The notes beneath the pieces were generated by a model, which saw nothing but the letters and a program-made list of their open reading frames with translations, searched no databases and was not told where the DNA came from. From a virus (Duplodnaviria; Caudoviricetes), in IMG/VR virus record IMGVR_UViG_3300025018_000093: a DNA stretch of 64,000 bases. The stretch is one strand, 5' to 3'. Made by a program: the position numbers and the translations under genes. Positions 10,914 to 46,470 of the stretch are shown in pieces. Position 1 is the stretch's first letter. Every line of letters starts with the position of its first letter.

Positions 10914-12079
10914 AGTTGACAGCAAAGAAGGAGGATCTTGAGCGGGCGCTTAAGATCGGAAGTACCACTGTGGCAAACTCCGGTGACGAGTTGCGGGCAC
11001 ACTATCTTTTCCGCTACCGCAATGGGAAGATGGAGGTTCTGGGAAATGACGAGCGCCTTCTGGGAAGTGTCGTCCTAGAGTGCGAAGTTGAGGGGGCCTC
11101 CGACAATCCTGACGAGAACAGGTTTACCGTAGAGGCAGACCGAATCAATCGGTGGCTTTCCGCATCTCCCAAGGGAAACGTCTCTCTTCGATTGAAGGAT
11201 GGAAAAGTGATTGCCCAGGCAGCTCTGGGAAAGGTCACGTTCCGCTCTTTGGACCCCGCTCGGTTCCCGTACTGGGAGTCTCGGCTTGAAGCTGCTACCT
11301 TCACAGGGAAAATCTCTGCTTCGCGTCTGCATCGCATTCTGAAGCATGCCCAGTTGTTCATGTCCAACAACGAAGCCCAGGATCCCGAAATCTGCTCCTG
11401 TGAGTTCAAGGACAATGGGTTCCTGTACGCGACGGATGCCGCTTCTGCGACGATCATTCGTGTGGCTGGGATGGAGAAGTCGAATGCCAGGATGACGAAG
11501 AAGAAGGACATTAGCTCCTACCTCCGATTTCTGGAAGCGCACTCGGAAGACGAGATTGAGTTCTGGGAGCATGACCAGTGTCTGTTTTTGAAGACAAGTT
11601 CTGGAAACCTTTTCGGACAGACGAAGTGGAAGTATGACTTCCCGGATATCGACTTGGGGTCCGCCTTTGAGGATGCACACCACTGGTGGACCTTCTCACG
11701 GGAAGAGATGATTTCGGTGATTGGGTTCCTCACACCCAGTGCGGTCCGAGACCGCTACCAGATCCATTTCAAATTGGATGGCGTCGGGAACATTAACGTT
11801 TCCCTCACCTCCGCTGCGGGTGGAAAGGTGGAGATTCCGGTCAACTGCAAGGAATCCAAGTCCGTTGCCGATTGCGTCCCTCTCCCACAGGGTGGCTTCC
11901 CGTTGTCCTATGAGTACCTCAAGAGTGTCCTCAAGGGTTTGAGCGGAGAGTTCGTGACGATGGCCTCCAGCCAGCTCCTCAATGACGCGGGGGATCCTGC
12001 GGGTGGCTACTGCTCCTTCAAGCAGGAGGTGGAAGGCGACCAGTATCTTGTGGTGCTCGGTTGGTACGAGGAGCAATAG
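10910..12079 (+). CDS. dnaN: DNA polymerase III beta-clamp-like processivity factor
   Basis: 389 aa; MKLTAKKEDLERAL start, FPYWE/FPDID linkers, LYATDA; dnaX is nearby. Confidence 0.72.
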   Translation: MKLTAKKEDLERALKIGSTTVANSGDELRAHYLFRYRNGKMEVLGNDERLLGSVVLECEVEGASDNPDENRFTVEADRINRWLSASPKGNVSLRLKDGKVIAQAALGKVTFRSLDPARFPYWESRLEAATFTGKISASRLHRILKHAQLFMSNNEAQDPEICSCEFKDNGFLYATDAASATIIRVAGMEKSNARMTKKKDISSYLRFLEAHSEDEIEFWEHDQCLFLKTSSGNLFGQTKWKYDFPDIDLGSAFEDAHHWWTFSREEMISVIGFLTPSAVRDRYQIHFKLDGVGNINVSLTSAAGGKVEIPVNCKESKSVADCVPLPQGGFPLSYEYLKSVLKGLSGEFVTMASSQLLNDAGDPAGGYCSFKQEVEGDQYLVVLGWYEEQ

Positions 12080-12083
12080 CATC

Positions 12084-12737
12084 GTGAACATCCCACAGGT
12101 TCCCTCTCTTTCAGGTCTTCAATCTAAGCTATCCCGTGCCCAGGGACGCAGAGACACACTCTTGCAGCGACTCCAGGAGGTTCGTCAGGATATCATGCAG
12201 CTGAAGGAAGAGGAGAGCCTTCTGGACCACGTGGAGACGCTCTTCCGAACGCTCATTGACGCGGAGATTTCAGAGGCCGTGAAGGCAGCCGAGGACTTGC
12301 AGACAGAGGCCCTACGGTCTGTGTTTGTAGACCAGGACTTGTCCGTGCGGGCTGACGTCTCCACGGAACGTGGGAAGGTTTCCGTGTCTCTTGTTACCAT
12401 CCAAAAGGATAAGGATGGTAACGTGACAGAGGGAGGCTGCAACGATACGTTCGGGGGCTCCGTCACAACGGTGGAATCTGTGCTGCTCCGCTTCTTGGTG
12501 CTGCTGCGCCGGAACCTTCGTCCGTTGCTTGTGCTGGATGAGTCGCTACCAGCCTTTGACCCCAACTACGCGACCAACATGGGACAGTTTCTGATGGCCG
12601 TCTGCGAGCGCATGGGTGTCGACATCCTAATGGTGACGCACAACCCGATGTTCTACGAGTCTGCTCATCGAACGTACAGGATTCGCCGCCACCAGGACGG
12701 AGTCAAGTTCGACTTGGTGCATGAGGTGTCGAGATGA
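12084..12737 (+). CDS. sbcC: SbcC/Rad50-like ABC ATPase, C-terminal half
   Basis: GTG 12084 after GAGGAG; short coiled coil, signature-like FGGSV, Walker B LLVLDES, H-loop MVTHN; no Walker A. Confidence 0.85.
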   Translation: MNIPQVPSLSGLQSKLSRAQGRRDTLLQRLQEVRQDIMQLKEEESLLDHVETLFRTLIDAEISEAVKAAEDLQTEALRSVFVDQDLSVRADVSTERGKVSVSLVTIQKDKDGNVTEGGCNDTFGGSVTTVESVLLRFLVLLRRNLRPLLVLDESLPAFDPNYATNMGQFLMAVCERMGVDILMVTHNPMFYESAHRTYRIRRHQDGVKFDLVHEVSR

Positions 12738-15546: not shown

Positions 15547-17190
15547 ATGAGCTGGGACACTAAATATCGTCCAGTCACCTACGCTGATGTGTTGGGTCAG
15601 GAAGCTACAATCAGCATCCTGCGTCAGATCGTGAAGTCCAAGCGGGGTTTCCACCAGAGTTATCTGTTCACGGGACCCTTTGGTACCGGGAAGACAACGC
15701 TGGGTCGGATTCTTGCCCGAGCCCTCCTGTGCTCTGAGGCACGGGAGGGTAACCCCTGCGATGAGTGCCCCTCCTGTATGGAGATGCTTCGAAAGGGGAG
15801 CACGGAGTGCTTCACGGAGGTTGATGCTGCCACGAATAGCGGCAAGGAAGGCATTCGGCGTATCCTGGAGACTATCGAGTTTGGTACGTTCAGCGGAAAG
15901 CAACGGATCTACTTGTTTGACGAAAGCCATCAGCTCTCTCGGGATGCGCTGGATGCGCTTCTGAAGCCGCTGGAGGATACCCGAGGGGACACCGGGGAAC
16001 GCAAACTGGTCTGCATCTTCTGCACCACGGAACCCGAAAAGATGCGGGAGACAATTGGTTCGCGATGTGGCCCCACCTTCGCTGTTCATACGGTCCCTAC
16101 AGAGAAGACTGCAGCTCGACTTGCAGAGATATGCCAGAGGGAGGATGTCCCCTTTGAGTCCGAAGCTCTGGTCCGGGTAGCCGAGAGTGTAGAAGGGCAC
16201 ATTCGAGATGCCTTCAAAGCGTGTGAAATGCTTTCGATGCAGGGAGGGATCACCCTTGCGAACGTCGAGTACTATCTCGGGCATGACCTGAATCGTTTGT
16301 ATCTATCGATCTTCGAGGGCTTGCAGGGGGAGATTTCTTCCGTCATGAACACCCTCGAACAGCTTTTAATTCGAGTTTCTCCGGCTGTGATCTACGAAAA
16401 ACTTGCCAAGGTTGCGATGTTAGCCTACAAATTAGGGTTGGGGATCAGTAAGGTCCCTTCCTACTGGGAAGCTGGGAGGTTACGGCAAATCGGAGCGAAG
16501 TACGGGGGTACCCTACTTGATCTTGCTGAAATGTTTAGCTCTCGCCCTAGGCACCCCTCGAAGGATATGCTCCGATGTGATCTTCTGTCTGTGCATCGCC
16601 GCCTCCAGAGTGGTATTCAATTAAAGTACGTGGAGTCCTCTCCTCTCGCTTCGGCAGGGGAGGTTGTTCTTTCACAACCTGAGACAACCCGAGTGCAGGT
16701 AGCGATAAGCGCGGAGCCGCAGGTGAAGTCTGCAGTCCCGGCCTCGGCAGCGGTTCCTTCTCCCCAGGTGAGTCCCTCTCCTGGGGAGGAAGGTGCCCTC
16801 CGGAAGCCTTCTCTCTTGCCAATACCCTCCGACCAGAGTAGCAATTTCCTGACTACTAGTGGGGTTTACAACCCACCGTGGGGGCAGAGTAAAAGTCGGA
16901 TCGAGGCTATCAAGCGTTTGGAAAACGGTGGCATTGTTTCCAAGGACAGTCCGGTCACGTCTGCTCCGCAGAGTGCTCAGAGCTTTTCTCAACCCCGCGC
17001 TCAGGAAGTCGCTACAGAAACCGCGAGCGAGTTGCCGGCAAACTTGTTTTGCTCTCTCGTAAACGCACTTTCGTCTGAGTTGAGCAAGAGTGGGAAAAAG
17101 CAAAGATCCCAGCATGAAGAGGCCGACAGCCAAGCAGTTCTTCGACCCCCTGGTGAAGGTCCTGGGGAGGTTGACGGACTACCGTGCTGA
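15547..17190 (+). CDS. dnaX: DNA polymerase III gamma/tau clamp loader
   Basis: KYRP..ADVLGQE, GPFGTGKTT, PCDECPSC, EVDAATNSG, FDESHQLS, SRC. Confidence 0.93.
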   Translation: MSWDTKYRPVTYADVLGQEATISILRQIVKSKRGFHQSYLFTGPFGTGKTTLGRILARALLCSEAREGNPCDECPSCMEMLRKGSTECFTEVDAATNSGKEGIRRILETIEFGTFSGKQRIYLFDESHQLSRDALDALLKPLEDTRGDTGERKLVCIFCTTEPEKMRETIGSRCGPTFAVHTVPTEKTAARLAEICQREDVPFESEALVRVAESVEGHIRDAFKACEMLSMQGGITLANVEYYLGHDLNRLYLSIFEGLQGEISSVMNTLEQLLIRVSPAVIYEKLAKVAMLAYKLGLGISKVPSYWEAGRLRQIGAKYGGTLLDLAEMFSSRPRHPSKDMLRCDLLSVHRRLQSGIQLKYVESSPLASAGEVVLSQPETTRVQVAISAEPQVKSAVPASAAVPSPQVSPSPGEEGALRKPSLLPIPSDQSSNFLTTSGVYNPPWGQSKSRIEAIKRLENGGIVSKDSPVTSAPQSAQSFSQPRAQEVATETASELPANLFCSLVNALSSELSKSGKKQRSQHEEADSQAVLRPPGEGPGEVDGLPC

Positions 17191-18106
17191 GGTAGGGGTA
17201 CCCTGCGCCCAGGTTCTGGATCAAGTTCTAGCGGAGGTGGGGGTTGATCCGGTACAAAGCCCCTGGCCGCTTACAGGCTCGGCTCCACTGGGTCTATACA
17301 GAATCATTGGGTTTGCCTACCGCAACCAGAGACCCAACATTGAGACCTCCAGGTACACGGGGAAGCGTTCATCCTTGTGCATGGACTTTGGTCGCGGTAT
17401 CTGGGGGCTCACACATAGCGGGGTGGAGAGATCCCGAGAATTAGCCAATGTTGTTCTTCCCAGGCTTCTCTCGGACCTGCACCCGGAAACCAGCGGTGAC
17501 CTTGACCCAGAGTTGATACCCGAGAGGGAGCCCGAGCAGGATACCCGAGATGCTTTGACATGGGTGGTGCTTGAGCTATCTTACCTGGGAGAGATCAAGG
17601 TGATGGATGGCTCCCTTGAGCAAGCTCTCCGTCGTTCCCTGCGCTTGGATGCAAATCATCCTATCTTCATCCCGGCAACTTCCTATTGTCGAAATGACCG
17701 CGTGGTGACCCTCCAGCTCATGGAGGGTTACGTGTTTGTGGGGGCCGGTCTTGATGAGGTGGAGTACTTTACGCTGGAGCGGACAGGTTACGTAAAGCAG
17801 GTCATGTCCGTCATTGGGCCAAACGGGATGCGTGTCTTGCACACAATCCCGAACCGCAATGTTGAGGATATGCAGCGGAAGCTGCGTAGCATGGCAATGC
17901 TGGATGTGAATCCTGGAGATCAGGTGAAGGTAGTTGAGGGGAAGTATGCGGGACTTCTGATGGAAGTTCTTTTCGTTGAGGAAGAGTATGTCATTCTGCA
18001 GACAAGTGGTTTGAGATCCCTCAGCGTGATCACACGCCTGCCAAAGATGTTCATGGCTCTGGATAAGACAGAAGAAGAGATGTGGGAGGGGGAGGATGAA
18101 CTCTGA
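17090..18106 (+). CDS. Mrr_N-like winged helix fused to a NusG-like NGN+KOW module
   Basis: PTAKQFFDPLVKVL...GRGIWGLTHSG (Mrr_N-like); WVVLE, IFIP, LMEGYVFV, PGDQVKVVEGKYAG (NGN/KOW); start 17090 or 17114. Confidence 0.72.
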   Translation: MGKSKDPSMKRPTAKQFFDPLVKVLGRLTDYRAEVGVPCAQVLDQVLAEVGVDPVQSPWPLTGSAPLGLYRIIGFAYRNQRPNIETSRYTGKRSSLCMDFGRGIWGLTHSGVERSRELANVVLPRLLSDLHPETSGDLDPELIPEREPEQDTRDALTWVVLELSYLGEIKVMDGSLEQALRRSLRLDANHPIFIPATSYCRNDRVVTLQLMEGYVFVGAGLDEVEYFTLERTGYVKQVMSVIGPNGMRVLHTIPNRNVEDMQRKLRSMAMLDVNPGDQVKVVEGKYAGLLMEVLFVEEEYVILQTSGLRSLSVITRLPKMFMALDKTEEEMWEGEDEL

Positions 18107-18707
18107 ACTGTGGCCCGGACATCACATGGTGGACCCTTCGGTAATGGACTCTCGATTTTCAACGCAGGATGGAATGCAGTACATGGACTCTATCTTCGAG
18201 GAGACCTCGGAGGAGAGCCAAGAGATGATTGAGAGGATACGGGGTATCCTGGATCTTCTCCCCGCTCGTGAAGCGGACTTCATTGACCTGTACTACTTCA
18301 ACCGGCTCAAGCAGACGGCTATCGCCAGGATTTTTCGTTGCAGCCAGCCGACAGTGTGCTACCGGCTGCAGCGGGCAGCAGCTCGTATCCAATTCCTGCT
18401 GGAGCTTCCAGACGTCAGCTCGGCTTCCGTTGAGGTGGCCATGCGATCCTTCCTCAGCAATGAGGTTGACATCAAGATCATGGTCTTGATGTTTGAGACG
18501 ACATGCCAATCTGAGGCTGCAAAACAGTTGGGTATTAGTCAAGGGAAAGTTCGTCACAGGTTCATGCGGTCCCTGGAAAAGATGCGGGGCGTGGAAGAAC
18601 TGTCTGTGTTTGTTACCCTTTTCAACAAGATATCCGAGAACTTGAATATCCTTCGAGAGGTTTGCCGCTCTTCCACGGAAGAGCCTGTCACTCACATTGT
18701 GGACTAG
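18096..18707 (+). CDS. tandem sigma70 region-4-like HTH protein
   Basis: LDLLPAREADFIDLYYF..KQTAIARIFRCSQPTV and QSEAAKQLGISQGKVRHR; no sigma region 2. Confidence 0.75.
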   Translation: MNSELWPGHHMVDPSVMDSRFSTQDGMQYMDSIFEETSEESQEMIERIRGILDLLPAREADFIDLYYFNRLKQTAIARIFRCSQPTVCYRLQRAAARIQFLLELPDVSSASVEVAMRSFLSNEVDIKIMVLMFETTCQSEAAKQLGISQGKVRHRFMRSLEKMRGVEELSVFVTLFNKISENLNILREVCRSSTEEPVTHIVD

Positions 18708-18783
18708 CCGTGCGTTAGAAATCCTATCAGACCCTCAAGGTAGAGTCGGACTACCCCCGACGCTACTCTGTCTGGTAGAAAAA

Positions 18784-19086
18784 ATGGCAAGACCATCCAT
18801 ACAACGTGTTGTGCTGTCACGGGATCTTGCTCGCAGGTGGCTACAGGATAAGGGGAAGGCGGAGCACCGCCTCCGCATTTTTGGTAGCCAGGTGCGAAAC
18901 CTCCCAGGATTGCTCCGGTCACTACGGGACAGTCGTGTCCGTATTGCGGGGATCGAATCTTTGCCTGATCTCGGTATCCAGGAGGGTTTTGACATCGTAA
19001 CCGTATGGTCCTCCGATTACCGTGCTCTTCGCTCTCTCCAGGCATGGGTAGAGCACAAGGGTATGGAGACGTCAGGAGTCTGGTAA
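18784..19086 (+). CDS. hypothetical protein (first gene of the virion cluster)
   Basis: ATG 18784 downstream of a long hairpin; QRVV..LARRWL motif. Confidence 0.6.
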   Translation: MARPSIQRVVLSRDLARRWLQDKGKAEHRLRIFGSQVRNLPGLLRSLRDSRVRIAGIESLPDLGIQEGFDIVTVWSSDYRALRSLQAWVEHKGMETSGVW

Positions 19087-40163: not shown

Positions 40164-41750
40164 ATGGGACGCAAACGAATGACCTGGACTCAAAGTAGAC
40201 GTGCTTCGGCGCCACCCGCAATTCCCGGCTATGATGACGCAGGGTACAGACACCCCGCTCACCAGACTCCGGATCCTGACTCGGACCAGTACGAGAACGG
40301 GGACATAAGTTCTTGGGCAGAGGACGTGCATCCGCCGCCCTACCAGAATAGCCGTCACCCCGCTGTCCCTACAGAGTCCGGTGGCTACAACCATCCGGCA
40401 GGCAACCCTGCCAATCTCAAGCAGGCTATGTATCGCAAGGCACATAAGTGCATTCGCATTGCACAGACCCTGCTTGGCCCGAGGGCAACAGTTGCACAGA
40501 TCGAGAACAAGGCGCTTTCGATGTTGGACTGGCCCGAGCGGAAGGTCCAGGCTTCTCTGAAGCACATTGCCTCTTCGCGTCAGGCCGCCTCTTCGCGTCG
40601 CTCTTGCGGTGAGATGGGCATGTACGGCATGTACGGACAGGATGACATGGATCTTCCGAATGCCGGCATGTATGAGGATGACATGGACGACATGGGTCTG
40701 TACGGCATGGATGACGAGTTGGGCATGGATGACGAGTTGGACATGGACGACGAGTTGGGCATGTTTGACGAGGAAGAAGACGAAGGCATGTCTATGCTCG
40801 ATGATGACTTCGATGATGACTTCGAGGAGGACTTCGAGGAGGACTTCGAGGAGGACATGTACGGGATGCTCGATGACTATGAGCAGGGCGATCCCGTCAT
40901 GGGTCCGCAGCGCATGGCTTCGCAAGAGGACAGAATGCTGGCCTCGATGCTTCGCGAAGCTCGCGTCAAGAAGCAGAATCGCTTCGCGGGTCTTGATGCA
41001 ACAGAGAAGCGGATGCTAGCTTCGATGCTTCGTCAGGCTGCTGCGGAAGAGGAAGTGGAAGAGGAAGTGGACGAGGAAGAGGAAGAGGGTGCCAAGAAGA
41101 AGGCTCGCTCTCGGAAGGCCGTCTCCACTCGTCGTGCTCTCACCCGTCGTCGTGCTGCTGAGGACGAAGAAGAGGGTGCTGAGGACGAAGAAGAGGAAGA
41201 GGGAGCTAAGAAGAAGGCTCGCCGCAACCGCGACCTGGATCCGATGGGTCTGATGGACGATCCGATGGACCGTCTGGCCTCCAAGGGAGAGGATGCGGAG
41301 CTTCGTGCCCTTTTTGAGAATGATCTCTTTGCGGCAGCTGCTCGTGTAGCTGCTGGGGAAGAGGACGAGGAAGAGGGTGCTGAGGAGGACGAGGAAGAGG
41401 GTGCCAAGAAGAAGGCTCGCTCTCGTAAGGCCGTCTCCACTCGCCGTAACCCCCTCCGTCGCCGTGCGGCTGACGAAGAGGAAGAAGACGAGGATGAGGA
41501 CGAGGACGAGGATGAGGACGAGGATGAGGAAGAGGAAGAGGAGGGAGCCAAGAAGAAGGCCACCCGCCTCGCTTCCGCACAGCGCCCTCGCCCCCGCAAG
41601 CCCGCTCGCAGTGGGTCGCCTCGCCGTCTCGGAAACATCCATACGGCTTCCTCCGGTGGCGAGCTCAACGAACTGTCGCAGCTCTGGGCTTCCGCTCCCG
41701 ATATCAGTGAGACCTTCGGGATCACGGAGACGAACCTCGACGTGGAGTGA
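40164..41750 (+). CDS. putative scaffolding protein, very acidic and repeat-rich
   Basis: Between protease and capsid genes; poly-E/D tracts alternating with KKKAR/RRRAA blocks. Confidence 0.6.
   Translation: MGRKRMTWTQSRRASAPPAIPGYDDAGYRHPAHQTPDPDSDQYENGDISSWAEDVHPPPYQNSRHPAVPTESGGYNHPAGNPANLKQAMYRKAHKCIRIAQTLLGPRATVAQIENKALSMLDWPERKVQASLKHIASSRQAASSRRSCGEMGMYGMYGQDDMDLPNAGMYEDDMDDMGLYGMDDELGMDDELDMDDELGMFDEEEDEGMSMLDDDFDDDFEEDFEEDFEEDMYGMLDDYEQGDPVMGPQRMASQEDRMLASMLREARVKKQNRFAGLDATEKRMLASMLRQAAAEEEVEEEVDEEEEEGAKKKARSRKAVSTRRALTRRRAAEDEEEGAEDEEEEEGAKKKARRNRDLDPMGLMDDPMDRLASKGEDAELRALFENDLFAAAARVAAGEEDEEEGAEEDEEEGAKKKARSRKAVSTRRNPLRRRAADEEEEDEDEDEDEDEDEDEEEEEEGAKKKATRLASAQRPRPRKPARSGSPRRLGNIHTASSGGELNELSQLWASAPDISETFGITETNLDVE
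40707..40856 (+). repeat. coding tandem repeats (MDDELG x3; DFEE x3)
   Basis: 18-bp unit x3 from 40707; (GACTTCGAGGAG)3GAC at 40818-40856. Confidence 0.9.
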
Positions 41751-41759
41751 GACTACGGC

Positions 41760-41933
41760 ATGCTCAAGCTCAGTTTTAGATCCAAGCGGTTTGCGCCCAC
41801 GCACACCATCTACTTTGAAGATGAATGGAACCAGTACGAGATGCAGGTTCAAGTTGACGAAGTAGATGGCATGGCCTGGGATGAGGACGGTGAGGCGGTA
41901 GCTGAGCGAAAGCGTCTGGGAGCCCCTTGGTAA
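41760..41933 (+). CDS. small hypothetical protein (57 aa, not in the ORF track)
   Basis: MLKLSFRSKRFAPTHTIYFEDEWNQYEMQVQVDEVDGMAWDEDGEAVAERKRLGAPW, read manually. Confidence 0.45.
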   Translation: MLKLSFRSKRFAPTHTIYFEDEWNQYEMQVQVDEVDGMAWDEDGEAVAERKRLGAPW

Positions 41934-42028
41934 ATCTTGGATGACAAGCTAAGGGTTGATCCCAACTATACTGTGCGAAAGGTGAAGCCCCTTTCCTGAT
42001 TCGACTTACACCCCGATGAGCCAAGTTG

Positions 42029-42065
42029 ACCGCCGTAGTTCTTCTGAACTGCGGCGGTTTTTTTT
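42029..42065 (+). terminator. Rho-independent terminator
   Basis: ACCGCCGTAGTTC-ttct-GAACTGCGGCGGT followed by a T run. Confidence 0.85.
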
Positions 42066-42188
42066 CAATAGCCGTTCGATACCTCCACCTTATCTGTGGA
42101 AGGAGAGCATGGTGCTCTCAATCTTAGATGGGGAGGACTAGTAGTGGTCACTTCTCATAACCCGCACCTCTGAACAGGGAGAATCGAT

Positions 42189-43774: not shown

Positions 43775-43803
43775 GCCAATTTCCGGCTATCCTCGCTCAT
43801 CTG

Positions 43804-43837
43804 AACCCCTGGGGCTTTGGCCTCGGGGGTTTTTTTG
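43804..43837 (+). terminator. Rho-independent terminator after the capsid gene
   Basis: AACCCCTGGGGC-tttg-GCCTCGGGGGTT followed by a T run. Confidence 0.85.
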
Positions 43838-43902
43838 TATCTCCACTCAGAGGTACGAAACCGCTTGATCTGCCCTTTGGTATGAGGTACAGTTAGTTTC
43901 CG

Positions 43903-46470
43903 ATGCATTGCGTCCACACCATGGAGAGTGCTATGGGAAGCTTGTCTTCGAGGGTCACAAAGGAAAGTCTGGAGAGACTTCACGCGGAGTGTACGGACAG
44001 GGAGGTGGCAGCCTTGTACGGGGTCACGGATGTGGCCGTGAGTCGCCTTCGGTACAGGTGGGGAATAACGACGCTCTCCCAGCGGGAACGCCGGGAGGTG
44101 CTGCGGGGGGCTGAAGGGTTATCTTTGGACACCCTGACACCCGCGAAGTTGGTGGACCTGTACACACAGATGGGGGACTCCCAGATTGGTGCCCTTTACG
44201 GTGTGTCAGGCACGACGATTCGGAAACTCCGGCAGGATTGGGGTATACTGAGTCTCTCCAAACGCGAGAGGTCTACCTCAGTAGGAGACTTCACGGAGGA
44301 CCAGAAGCAAATCTGCATGGGAACCCTGCTTGGGGATGGTCACCTCATGAAGCATGGAGTCTTGAAGATATCCCATGCTTGGCACCAGCTTTCGTACACG
44401 AGATGGTTGCAACGAGCGTTGCAACCGCATGCTCGCCCTCTCTTCTATGAAGAGAAACAGATGGATACAGGGACTCTGTGTTTTGCCTTCGGGTTTCGTA
44501 CCCAGGAGCATGTTTGGTTGCGGACCCTCCGAGGGATTTTTTACCCAGAGGGGAGGCGTATCTTTCCGCAGTCTGTTCTGGAGGAGTTAGGGCCTTTGGG
44601 CTTAGCGGTCTGGTACTTCGATGATGGGAACCTTGCGAGTGGCCTTCCCTCTTTTGCACTGGGGGAGATCAGCGACCAGGAAGCGGAAGCGGTATGTCAG
44701 AAGGTGCACCAGAGGTTTGGACTCGACACTTATGTCCGACCACAGTCCACGGAGACCTGCAAAATTATGGGGGTGCGCGGGGGAAGTGCTGACATCTTCT
44801 TTCACCTGGTGCGCTCTTATGCCACCCCAGATATGCTCCACAAGCTCCCCCAGAAACACTGGACCACACACGCTCCGCTTCACATCCACAGCACGCCCGA
44901 GAAAGGGATTCCGCAGGAGTTGGGAGAGCGGTGCTGTGCGTGGGACTCCCTAAGTGCACAGTCTAGGGAGACGCTCCTGGGGGACCTTGTGGCGTACTGG
45001 CACCAGCGGGGTTTCCCACATTACGTGCCCCGCCCCGAGGAACTGGAAACGCTGCTGTCCCTATCTGCGGAGCAGGTTCTCCGCAAGGATGGTCTTTCCT
45101 GTCGTCCACACAATGTGGGGCAGGCAACTTGCCAGGCGTTCGCAACGCACATCTGGGAGGCTCGTTCTTGGGGATCTAAGCAGAGTCCTCGGGAGATATT
45201 TGAGGATGCAGACGCTCTTGGTAAAGCAATGTGCGCTCGCCTCACGGCCCGCAGTAAGACGCAAAAAGGACGTGTGGCACCCATGTCCGCAGCGGAGGTT
45301 CGTGTCAGTATCCGTTCCTGGAAGCTCTCCGGGGTGTACAATTTCAGACCGAGCCTAGCCAAGATACTAGTAGACTTGTACGGCACTCCTGGAGGGACTG
45401 TGTATGATCCCTGTGCTGGATATGGGGGAAGGATGCTCGGTGTGGTGCTTTCCCAGCATGTGATGCGTTACGTAGGGTGCGACCCCCATCGGGAGGGGAT
45501 CGCGCGTCTCGGTTCTTTCGCAGGTTGGTTGGAGGAGTACCTTCCAGGAGTGTCTTCCAGGGTGTCTTTGCATGTCACTCCTGCAGAGGACTTCTATCCA
45601 CCCCCCTGTGATCTTGTGATCACGTCTCCTCCCTACTGGTGTCGCGAGCAGTATGAAGACTCCCCACAGCAGTCCGGGGTACGGTACCCCACATACGCGG
45701 CATGGCTGGAAGGATTTTGGTCACGTGTACTTGGAGCTTCCTATCAAGCTCTCCGTCCGGGTGGGTGGATGCTCCTGAATGTGGATGACTTCACCATTGG
45801 GCAAACCTCATATCCTCTGGTGAAGGACACTTTGGATCTATGCCGAGACCTCGGTCTCCATCTGGAAAAGACTTTCCGCTATGAGATGCCGAGGTTTGCG
45901 CAGCGGAGAAATCATGAGTCTATTCTGGCTTTGGTCAAACACGGAGATGCCCGTGAAGTGACCCCGGCTGCCAAAATGACACTCTCTCGTTGTACCCAAT
46001 GTGGGTGCGTGTTACCTGCGAGGGAGCTTCGGGAAAAACGGTGCTCCGACTGCCGAAAGCCAAAGACACATATTGTGGTCTGTGAGGGCTGTGGGCAAAA
46101 GCTGGAGGCTCATCGGGGAAACCGCCGCTTCTGTTCTGAGAACTGTAGGGCTCGGCACCACCGAAAGAAAAAGTCCGAGGGGAGGGGTGCTATCGTGCGT
46201 TCCTTCCTCTGCATCTCTTGCGGGAAGACTTGGGAGACGGAAGCTCAGGGAAGTTTCAAATGGTGCCCTGTGTGCCGGGAGAGGGAGGCAATCCAAAAAA
46301 GGACGCAGACGTGCGCGTATCACCATTGCGGGAGAGAGTTCGTTGACACCACCCCGAAAAACTCGATGAGTTACTGTCATCCAGAGCATCGTCGTCGCGA
46401 GAAGTTGTTTCGCTCTGGTAAGGCGAAGGATTTGAGCTACTTCCGAAGTCCAGATCCCGTGCTGGGATAA
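43903..46470 (+). CDS. fusion: 2xHTH + LAGLIDADG_2 endonuclease + N4C/N6A DNA methyltransferase + Zn ribbons
   Basis: EVAALYGV..VSRLR / QIGALYGV..IRKLR; GTLLGDG and AVWYFDDG; NFRP, VYDPCAGYGG, ITSPPY; at least 4 CxxC pairs plus CSENC. Start may be 43921 or 43933. Confidence 0.85.
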   Translation: MHCVHTMESAMGSLSSRVTKESLERLHAECTDREVAALYGVTDVAVSRLRYRWGITTLSQRERREVLRGAEGLSLDTLTPAKLVDLYTQMGDSQIGALYGVSGTTIRKLRQDWGILSLSKRERSTSVGDFTEDQKQICMGTLLGDGHLMKHGVLKISHAWHQLSYTRWLQRALQPHARPLFYEEKQMDTGTLCFAFGFRTQEHVWLRTLRGIFYPEGRRIFPQSVLEELGPLGLAVWYFDDGNLASGLPSFALGEISDQEAEAVCQKVHQRFGLDTYVRPQSTETCKIMGVRGGSADIFFHLVRSYATPDMLHKLPQKHWTTHAPLHIHSTPEKGIPQELGERCCAWDSLSAQSRETLLGDLVAYWHQRGFPHYVPRPEELETLLSLSAEQVLRKDGLSCRPHNVGQATCQAFATHIWEARSWGSKQSPREIFEDADALGKAMCARLTARSKTQKGRVAPMSAAEVRVSIRSWKLSGVYNFRPSLAKILVDLYGTPGGTVYDPCAGYGGRMLGVVLSQHVMRYVGCDPHREGIARLGSFAGWLEEYLPGVSSRVSLHVTPAEDFYPPPCDLVITSPPYWCREQYEDSPQQSGVRYPTYAAWLEGFWSRVLGASYQALRPGGWMLLNVDDFTIGQTSYPLVKDTLDLCRDLGLHLEKTFRYEMPRFAQRRNHESILALVKHGDAREVTPAAKMTLSRCTQCGCVLPARELREKRCSDCRKPKTHIVVCEGCGQKLEAHRGNRRFCSENCRARHHRKKKSEGRGAIVRSFLCISCGKTWETEAQGSFKWCPVCREREAIQKRTQTCAYHHCGREFVDTTPKNSMSYCHPEHRRREKLFRSGKAKDLSYFRSPDPVLG

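Follow-up and report, generated by a model that had tools for sequence, protein, structure and literature searches.

How does a very large phage that must rely on the RNA polymerase (RNAP) of its host keep that enzyme on its own long operons? This question is raised by two adjacent genes in the IMG/VR virus record IMGVR_UViG_3300025018_000093 (Duplodnaviria; Caudoviricetes), of which one stretch of 64,000 nt, here called the window, was analysed. Gene A encodes a protein in which a winged helix is joined to the NGN and KOW domains of the transcription factor NusG, and gene B encodes a tandem of two helix-turn-helix (HTH) units related to region 4 of sigma factors. The original prediction for this locus saw in the pair a transcription switch, in which a NusG paralogue tethered to DNA would load on host RNAP at a specific site and, with the sigma-like protein, drive a long late operon. 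Comparison with related phages shows that the NusG-like gene and gene B form a clade-wide module of huge phages, which is not special to the window phage, and that the winged-helix fusion of the window lineage is a minority variant of the NusG-like protein.

The window comes from a huge phage and is densely filled with genes that run in one direction, and the database places the product of gene A on a 261,416-bp contig. Upstream of A lie a Toprim primase-like gene, a phage metallopeptidase gene and a clamp-loader gene, and B is followed by genes for terminase, portal, head protease and major head protein. These flanking matches bear out the predicted position of the pair at the boundary between replication and virion genes. 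An exhaustive search retrieved 309 relatives of A, mostly stand-alone NGN-KOW proteins of about 175-185 residues. In a sample of 80 IMG/VR loci, on contigs of up to 618,736 bp, the order primase, metallopeptidase, clamp loader, NusG-like gene, B and then the same downstream genes was found in 80 of 80. The B family comprises 691 matches; among the 120 matches listed, most share 54-78% identity and many lie on contigs of 200-530 kb. Genes for the RNAP subunits beta and beta' were not found in five relatives, three of them 92-100% complete, in searches whose positive controls worked, and the phages of this clade must therefore use the host RNAP. The same five relatives contain no canonical sigma region 2, apart from one sub-threshold match.

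The open reading frame (ORF) of gene A is open throughout and overlaps that of gene B by 11 nt (Table 1). The database lists a 317-residue gene call for A which cuts into the N-terminal domain; because homologues conserve residues upstream of its start, including the stretch RPTAKQFFDP, this call represents a truncated N-terminal domain. The AlphaFold2 (AF2) model of the full protein has a predicted local distance difference test score (pLDDT) of 83. Foldseek matched the model to NusG, RfaH and Spt5 at E values of 2.6e-9 to 1e-5 with probability 1.0, NusG being the best match (2.6e-9; RfaH 2.1e-7). In VIA comparisons, the NGN domain aligns with that of RfaH (Z 9.0, 97 residues aligned, root-mean-square deviation 3.4), and the KOW domain, with modelled strands at residues 278-324, aligns with Spt5 KOW domains at Z 8.4-8.8, the highest value belonging to a DSIF KOW. 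A PDB profile match to Spt5 (E 1.7e-6) also falls in the KOW part. The profile scores of gene A itself are low: the NCBIfam model nusG (TIGR00922) matches at E 3.4e-5 with 23.8 bits against a cut-off of 135.7, and Pfam NusG (E 0.006) and KOW (E 0.017) both stay under the gathering score. In the relatives P0172, P0196 and P0206, Pfam NusG passes that score, and so does KOW in P0172 (26.6 bits, cut-off 22.3). By sequence and by fold, gene A thus has both the NGN fold and the C-terminal KOW beta-barrel of the NusG/Spt5 superfamily, and the complete NGN-KOW module claimed for it stands on Foldseek, VIA, NCBIfam and the Pfam scores of its relatives. The UpxY model (NF033644) reaches 18.3 bits against a cut-off of 100, the LoaP model (NF033641) does not match gene A in the window and gives its relatives at most 24.3 bits against 125, and no RfaH-named NCBIfam model is among the matches of gene A at E<=0.01. 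Since the curated NusG, UpxY and LoaP scores are all far under their cut-offs, gene A is, judged by sequence, a divergent branch of the NusG family outside the named subfamilies.

The N-terminal domain of gene A consists, in the model, of three helices (residues 14-28, 39-49 and 69-79) and a beta-hairpin wing (strands 97-101 and 104-107), which is a winged-helix fold. All of its VIA matches are winged helices, namely those of Hel308 (Z 7.9), SSV1 F-93 (7.6), the cohesin winged-helix domain (7.0), 2obp (7.0) and MarR (6.8). The domain carries a net charge of +6, and its RNQR helix and W-G-L-T wing are conserved. It is not a separate gene, because no stop codon intervenes and 19 representative clusters have the same build. 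A winged HTH on the same ORF as the NusG module was therefore correctly predicted, and both ways in which this could have failed, a separate gene or another fold, were checked. Its description as Mrr_N-like holds for the winged-helix fold but not for the sequence: Pfam Mrr_N (PF14338) gives no match to gene A in the window at E<=1, and in relatives there are two short sub-threshold matches (E 6.5e-4 and 0.027; 20.2 bits for P0191 against a cut-off of 29.5, and 15 bits for an ORF of locus L084). An Atlas search with the domain gave scores of 0.75-0.77, which are leads at most, including a weak lead to HARE-HTH.

Domain architectures were counted over 164 cluster representatives of the gene A family. 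NGN-KOW alone accounts for 115 clusters and the window type, with the winged helix in front, for 19, whereas NGN-KOW is followed by one winged helix in six clusters and by two in another two. In five of the six single-copy C-terminal fusions the winged helix is recognised at domain E values of 1e-25 to 1e-35 (0.001 in P0187). A quick maximum-likelihood tree groups the window lineage in one clade (SH-aLRT 95) and places the C-terminal fusions on other branches. This placement, together with the opposite domain order, implies that the fusion arose independently at least two times. The same winged helix is also found as a stand-alone protein (128-163 residues), in arrays of two or three copies, and at the N-terminus of sigma proteins of the extracytoplasmic function (ECF) type in relatives. 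TIGR02937 matches these winged-helix-sigma proteins at E 2.5e-7, under its cut-off, over model positions 16-163, which cover both sigma regions, and a PDB profile links them to region 4 of SigW. One relative, G005, contains both a fused winged-helix-NusG gene and a winged-helix-sigma protein (hhalign probability 99.9%), and relatives with a plain NusG-like gene carry the winged helix on other ORFs. Each module is present in a single copy within the window. A fusion of B with the NusG-like protein was looked for and not seen: a search with B for longer proteins gave none, which is weak evidence, the long forms of B are triple sigma-4 repeats, and NGN-KOW relatives with extra sequence at either end show no sigma-4 domain there. 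The winged helix is a mobile domain associated with transcription factors; the weight of the fusion in the window comes from its recurrence, from the occurrence of both domain orders and from the sharing of the domain with sigma-like factors.

The predicted mechanism, a NusG paralogue tethered to DNA, survives in part. The architecture is present, but about 80 huge phages pair a NusG-like protein without a winged helix with B, and because the pair works in these phages the DNA tether is an add-on and not the core of the mechanism. The winged helix might even contact a protein instead of DNA, as an adaptor for RNAP, for B or for another phage factor, such that sigma-like and NusG-like proteins would exchange on one docking point. 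Its presence on both ECF-like sigma and NusG-like factors, even within one genome, its occurrence on both the N- and the C-terminal side of NGN-KOW and in two- or three-copy arrays, and the protein-binding winged helices of cohesin and Hel308 among its top structural matches are in line with this idea, as is the HARE-HTH lead. The HARE-HTH family includes the delta subunit of RNAP. The positive charge of the domain, with a conserved basic RNQR helix and a wing typical of DNA-binding winged HTHs, and the matches to SSV1 F-93 and MarR, which bind DNA, speak for a tether instead, and the adaptor role is considered possible, but less likely than not.

Gene B has a GGGAGG Shine-Dalgarno sequence 6 nt ahead of its ATG. 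Pfam detects Sigma70_r4_2 (E 7.4e-12, 45.2 bits) and Sigma70_r4 (E 9.8e-11, 41.4 bits) above their cut-offs, each in two stretches, TIGR02937 reaches 59.6 bits, over its cut-off, in region 4 only (model positions 98-162), and PHROGs also detect sigma region-4 units. The model of B has a pLDDT of 81 and a predicted template-modelling score of 0.70. Its first domain contains a recognition helix, SQPTVxYRLxRA, that is invariant across 35 homologues; the second, for which residues 106-181 match RpoS region 4 in VIA at Z 6.4, has the invariant columns TTCQSE and QGxVRHRFxR. A short N-terminal peptide is invariant too, and the invariant C-terminal tail is a candidate docking peptide. Pfam finds no Sigma70_r2 in B at E<=1, and all fold matches are to region 4. 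The prediction of two sigma70 region-4 HTHs without region 2 is thus confirmed by Pfam, NCBIfam and fold search. Variants of B with a third sigma-4-like repeat (P0042, P0064, P0085 and P0125; 290-337 residues) occur in relatives, and the 619-kb relative G001 has a second tandem sigma-4 ORF at 572512-572838, distant from the conserved pair.

Two other roles for B have to be weighed against that of a DNA reader. B could be a sigma-4 mimic that occupies the host beta flap, or engages an anti-sigma or sigma partner of the host, and thereby shuts off -35-dependent host transcription; the NusG-like factor would then have no site specificity and would work across the genome, blunting Rho by displacing host NusG. 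T4 AsiA/gp33 and the sigma-like domain of PhyR are precedents for such appropriation or decoy. Without region 2, B cannot melt DNA alone, its conserved disordered N- and C-terminal peptides resemble docking motifs, its fold matches include the sigma-like domain of PhyR and complexes of sigma-4 with anti-sigma, and the NusG-like proteins of most clade members have no extra targeting domain. The recognition helices are, however, invariant and contain basic residues of the kind that read DNA, gene B is adjoined by a bipartite DNA motif conserved along with it, and the winged-helix fusions argue that targeting matters, which makes a mimic quite unlikely. Even less probable is that B is an antiterminator of the Q type, loaded at a DNA site as are the Q proteins of lambda, 82 and 21, with the NusG-like protein as its cofactor. 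B gives a partial match to PHROG 79, 'anti-termination protein Q-like' (E 1.3e-5), and a match to Phage_antitermQ (PF06530; E 0.02), VIA aligns it over 87 residues with Q21 in the Q-engaged complex (Z 6.8), and it lies directly ahead of the late block, as Q genes do. B scores far higher against sigma region 4, the Pfam match stays at 15.3 bits against a cut-off of 26, and the common part may be the HTH only.

The DNA that follows gene B contains the third conserved element. A 15-nt motif, CGnTWnTYnnYYTAT, stands directly after the B stop codon in most relatives, starting 6-25 nt downstream, and its positions C-11, G-10 and T-8 are kept in 41-44 of 45 non-redundant sites. The window copy retains the near-invariant positions. 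In whole genomes of relatives the exact motif is rare, about one per 50 kb, and confined to one strand (G001 has 12 copies, all reverse, and G003 has 6, all forward, compared with 0-2 for a control pattern). Each of 20 copies sampled is followed, 3-81 nt downstream, by an ORF start, and several stand immediately behind the preceding stop codon. Because of these single-strand copies upstream of ORF starts, the 15-mer looks like a compact phage promoter. Its halves, CGnTW and YYTAT, start about 11 bp apart, roughly one helical turn, and this bipartite build would suit a tandem-HTH reader such as B. Exact and one-mismatch motif counts in the window equal chance expectation, and sigma-70-type promoters around the A-B pair are not more frequent than in shuffled sequence. 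One further site, at 42055-42069, where the T run of a terminator and the next bases (CGGTTTTTTTTCAAT) give the motif with one mismatch, is probably a chance product of the T run. The region 18708-18783 had been proposed as the specific site of the winged helix. This assignment is not supported: the motif in that region is conserved clade-wide, irrespective of whether a winged helix is present, and is thus not specifically the site of this domain. With its two invariant recognition helices, B is the better candidate for a motif reader.

Two further interpretations of this region were rejected. An RNA hairpin formed by CTA/TAG pairing is not supported, since the flanks do not covary and several copies have no partner. 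The sequence GTAG(A/G), 11-13 nt after the motif, was considered as a -10 element and is better read as part of the ribosome-binding region, because similar strings (GTAGA/GGAG) precede clamp-loader starts in relatives where no 15-mer exists; they also precede 7 of 50 start codons in the window.

The motif could instead be a loading or pause site in the non-template strand, which the NGN domain would recognise in the manner of RfaH at ops or of B. subtilis NusG at TTNTTT. Polymerase that arrives from genes A and B would then collect the NusG-like factor at the motif, and B would have a separate role. Read-through transcripts would indeed cross a motif that lies so close behind the B stop codon, copies are strand-specific and at operon heads as ops sites are, some of them contain the ops core CGGTAG, and many have the T-rich sequence CGGTTTTC. 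A passage of PMC11880322 reports that PrfaH uses an ops-like site downstream of its own promoter. The position equivalent to G5 of ops varies, however, and is the least conserved in the core; tandem copies 45 nt apart exist in relatives and two copies flank an inserted gene, neither of which would be needed by a factor that remains bound; and the spacing between motif and ribosome-binding site is short and fixed, as in compact promoter cassettes. A role as an ops-like site is therefore regarded as unlikely.

The explanation preferred here, to which we give an even chance, is that A and B form a core transcription module acting on host RNAP, in which B reads the motif, the NusG-like protein provides processivity and the winged helix serves as a tether. 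Most likely, B would read the 15-nt promoter-like motif through the half-sites CGnTW and YYTAT, and it may also sit on the beta-flap site that is used by sigma region 4. It would thereby bring RNAP to a few operon heads of the phage, among them the one right after its own gene and before the virion block. The NusG-like protein would dock by its NGN domain on the elongating polymerase and, like RfaH, LoaP and UpxY, could make it processive and exclude host NusG and Rho over long operons (about 23 kb here). The winged helix would most likely raise the local concentration of this factor at start sites, through DNA or through a shared partner.

Several observations weigh against this proposal. On the clade matrix the window copy of the motif scores 11.0 compared with a median of 17.9, no second convincing copy was found in the 64 kb, and the matrix scan does not rise above shuffled background. 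Motif and B are linked by co-conservation only, since neither varies in presence across the clade, and an HTH sitting on double-stranded YYTAT would conflict with melting at that place if TAT is the -10 element. The Z values of about 7-8 for the N-terminal domain are in the middling range for VIA and come from a domain modelled within the whole gene A protein, and winged helices mediate protein contacts too. The absence of a divergent RNAP of the phiKZ type is based on Pfam models.

An extension of the proposal, which is regarded as unlikely, concerns the huge phages in which no RNAP gene was found. These would run a self-contained system of three parts on the host enzyme, with the 15-nt motif as promoter, B as its sigma-4 tandem reader and the NusG paralogue. 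A portable winged helix, carried by the sigma-like initiation factors as well as by the NusG-like elongation factor, would let these proteins, which are rivals for one clamp-helix site, be handed over at a single tethering point. If true, this would be a modular answer, achieved by domain fusion, to the site-specific recruitment that RfaH accomplishes through ops.

Table 1. Position of the A-B pair, its domains and associated elements within the window
Feature	Coordinates	Strand	Remarks
Gene A, winged-helix + NGN + KOW NusG-like protein, 338 residues	17090..18106	+	Alternative start ATG 17114
N-terminal winged-helix domain, residues 10-125	17117..17464	+	From AF2 secondary structure, VIA and alignment
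Acidic, disordered linker between N-terminal domain and NGN, residues 126-150	17465..17539	+	pLDDT <50 at residues 130-145
NGN domain, residues 151-272	17540..17905	+	LMEGYVFV strand motif
KOW beta-barrel, residues 273-326	17906..18067	+	
Gene B, tandem sigma region-4-like protein without region 2, 203 residues	18096..18707	+	
B domain 1, sigma region 4 fold, residues 37-107	18204..18416	+	VIA Z 9-10, 24 sigma-4 chains
B domain 2, second sigma-4-like HTH, residues 108-181	18417..18638	+	Second r4 stretch; NF004052 at residues 126-164
B C-terminal tail, NLNILREVxR	18639..18668	+	Invariant, predicted disordered
Window copy of motif CGnTWnTYnnYYTAT, CGTTAGAAATCCTAT	18713-18727	+	Starts 6 nt past B stop codon
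First virion-block gene	18784..19086	+	Directly after B in relatives too
Intrinsic terminator, 14-bp stem + T8	42028..42069	+	Upstream of capsid-gene region
Intrinsic terminator, 13-bp stem + T7	43803..43842	+	Directly after major head protein gene

The virion block comprises about 23 kb of genes without an intergenic gap and lies ahead of a pair of intrinsic terminators. Both terminators that had been named, at 42029 and 43804, are real and strong hairpin-plus-T-run sites. Read-through of such sites within a long late operon, as the original prediction assumed, is possible but unneeded, as the two sites stand on either side of the capsid-gene region, where the block ends. They fit a need for processive or read-through transcription, and also ordinary operon ends.

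The surroundings of the pair show some further features. The clamp-loader ORF (15547-17190) aligns to relatives only over its first ~350-390 residues, and its low-complexity tail runs 101 nt into gene A. In some relatives a lipoprotein-like gene (product MSRFGK..., with a GGC lipobox-like site) is inserted between B and the first virion gene, at about 11150-12100 in each of the loci L006, L014, L016, L017, L024, L032, L038, L040, L043 and L058; in L006 and L017 a copy of the 15-nt motif stands on either side of it, which gives it the look of a moron that brought along a start signal. Near the terminators, an ORF at 41377-41865 overlaps, in another frame, the end of a 528-residue gene (40164-41750), and coding-looking sequence runs to ~41934, just ahead of the first terminator, which may be a frameshift extension of that gene. 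The ORF right after the capsid terminator (43903-46470, 855 residues) has a LAGLIDADG homing-endonuclease match at residues 129-318 and may contain an intein.

To our knowledge, NusG is the sole transcription factor conserved in all cellular life. Specialised NusG paralogues are known from chromosomes and plasmids, and the recruitment of most of them is unexplained (PMC7593976). Phage NusG paralogues or winged-helix fusions are mentioned neither in that phylogenomic study nor in the review PMC7819879, searches of the literature for NusG in huge or jumbo phages gave no relevant result, and a huge-phage paper contains neither NusG nor KOW. That the architecture is undescribed, as had been supposed, agrees with these searches. 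At the level of annotation the NusG likeness is already known, because a Helicobacter pylori prophage protein is labelled 'NusG-like', PHROG 6386 'transcription antiterminator' and relatives 'NusG' by JGI; none of the literature searched describes the module, its partner B, the fusions or the motif. The locus adds a large phage-borne branch to the NusG family, as a core gene of phages of up to ~600 kb that is always accompanied by the sigma-4 tandem and in most of them by the cis motif. It also adds repeated, independent fusions of NusG-like proteins with a winged helix that is found on sigma-like factors of these phages as well, and would thus provide a natural case of elongation-factor recruitment through domain fusion. 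The proposal offers a testable model of how very large phages without a polymerase could keep host RNAP on track over tens of kilobases, and its small parts might serve as orthogonal transcription tools.

Small factors that redirect host RNAP are familiar from T4 late transcription (gp55, gp33, gp45) and from the minimal sigma factors of group 2 jumbo phages. Both share with the present locus compact promoters without a -35 element and the neighbourhood of clamp and clamp-loader genes. The survey PMC7824862, which mentions neither NusG nor KOW, describes minimal sigma factors with a single HTH in jumbo phages that lack an RNAP of their own. B differs in having two sigma-4 domains and no region-2-like part, no homology to gp55 or gp33 was seen, and the T4 scheme has no NusG-like partner. 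The lambdoid Q proteins resemble the proposed module as DNA-site-directed factors that join RNAP where the late operon begins and stay with it as it moves, and B has weak Q-like profile and fold matches. Q is, in contrast, a single protein without NGN-KOW, the matches of B are sub-threshold, and the DNA-binding-type and RNAP-riding modules are here of separate ancestry (winged helix, sigma-4 and NusG). The ECF-like sigma proteins of relatives recall ECF sigma factors with accessory domains in bearing the same N-terminal winged helix, with the two differences that they score under the TIGR02937 cut-off and that in the window the domain is carried by an elongation factor.

The closest parallels are the specialised NusG paralogues RfaH, LoaP, UpxY, TaA and ActX/PrfaH, which have the same two-domain build of NGN and KOW and are likewise encoded on horizontally moving DNA. 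The profile matches to nusG, UpxY and LoaP are weak but consistent, and loaP, taA and upxY also lie beside a long operon that is hard to express. According to an excerpt of PMC11685472, UpxY is the first gene of a two-gene regulator pair, as gene A is here, with UpxZ as its partner instead of a sigma-4 tandem protein. Compared with RfaH, the KOW domain is modelled as a beta-barrel, with no sign of autoinhibition of the RfaH type in the model. What sets the present branch apart from all these paralogues is that it is phage-encoded, as a core gene of a huge-phage clade, and that it has acquired an extra winged helix, at the N-terminus in the window lineage and at the C-terminus in relatives.

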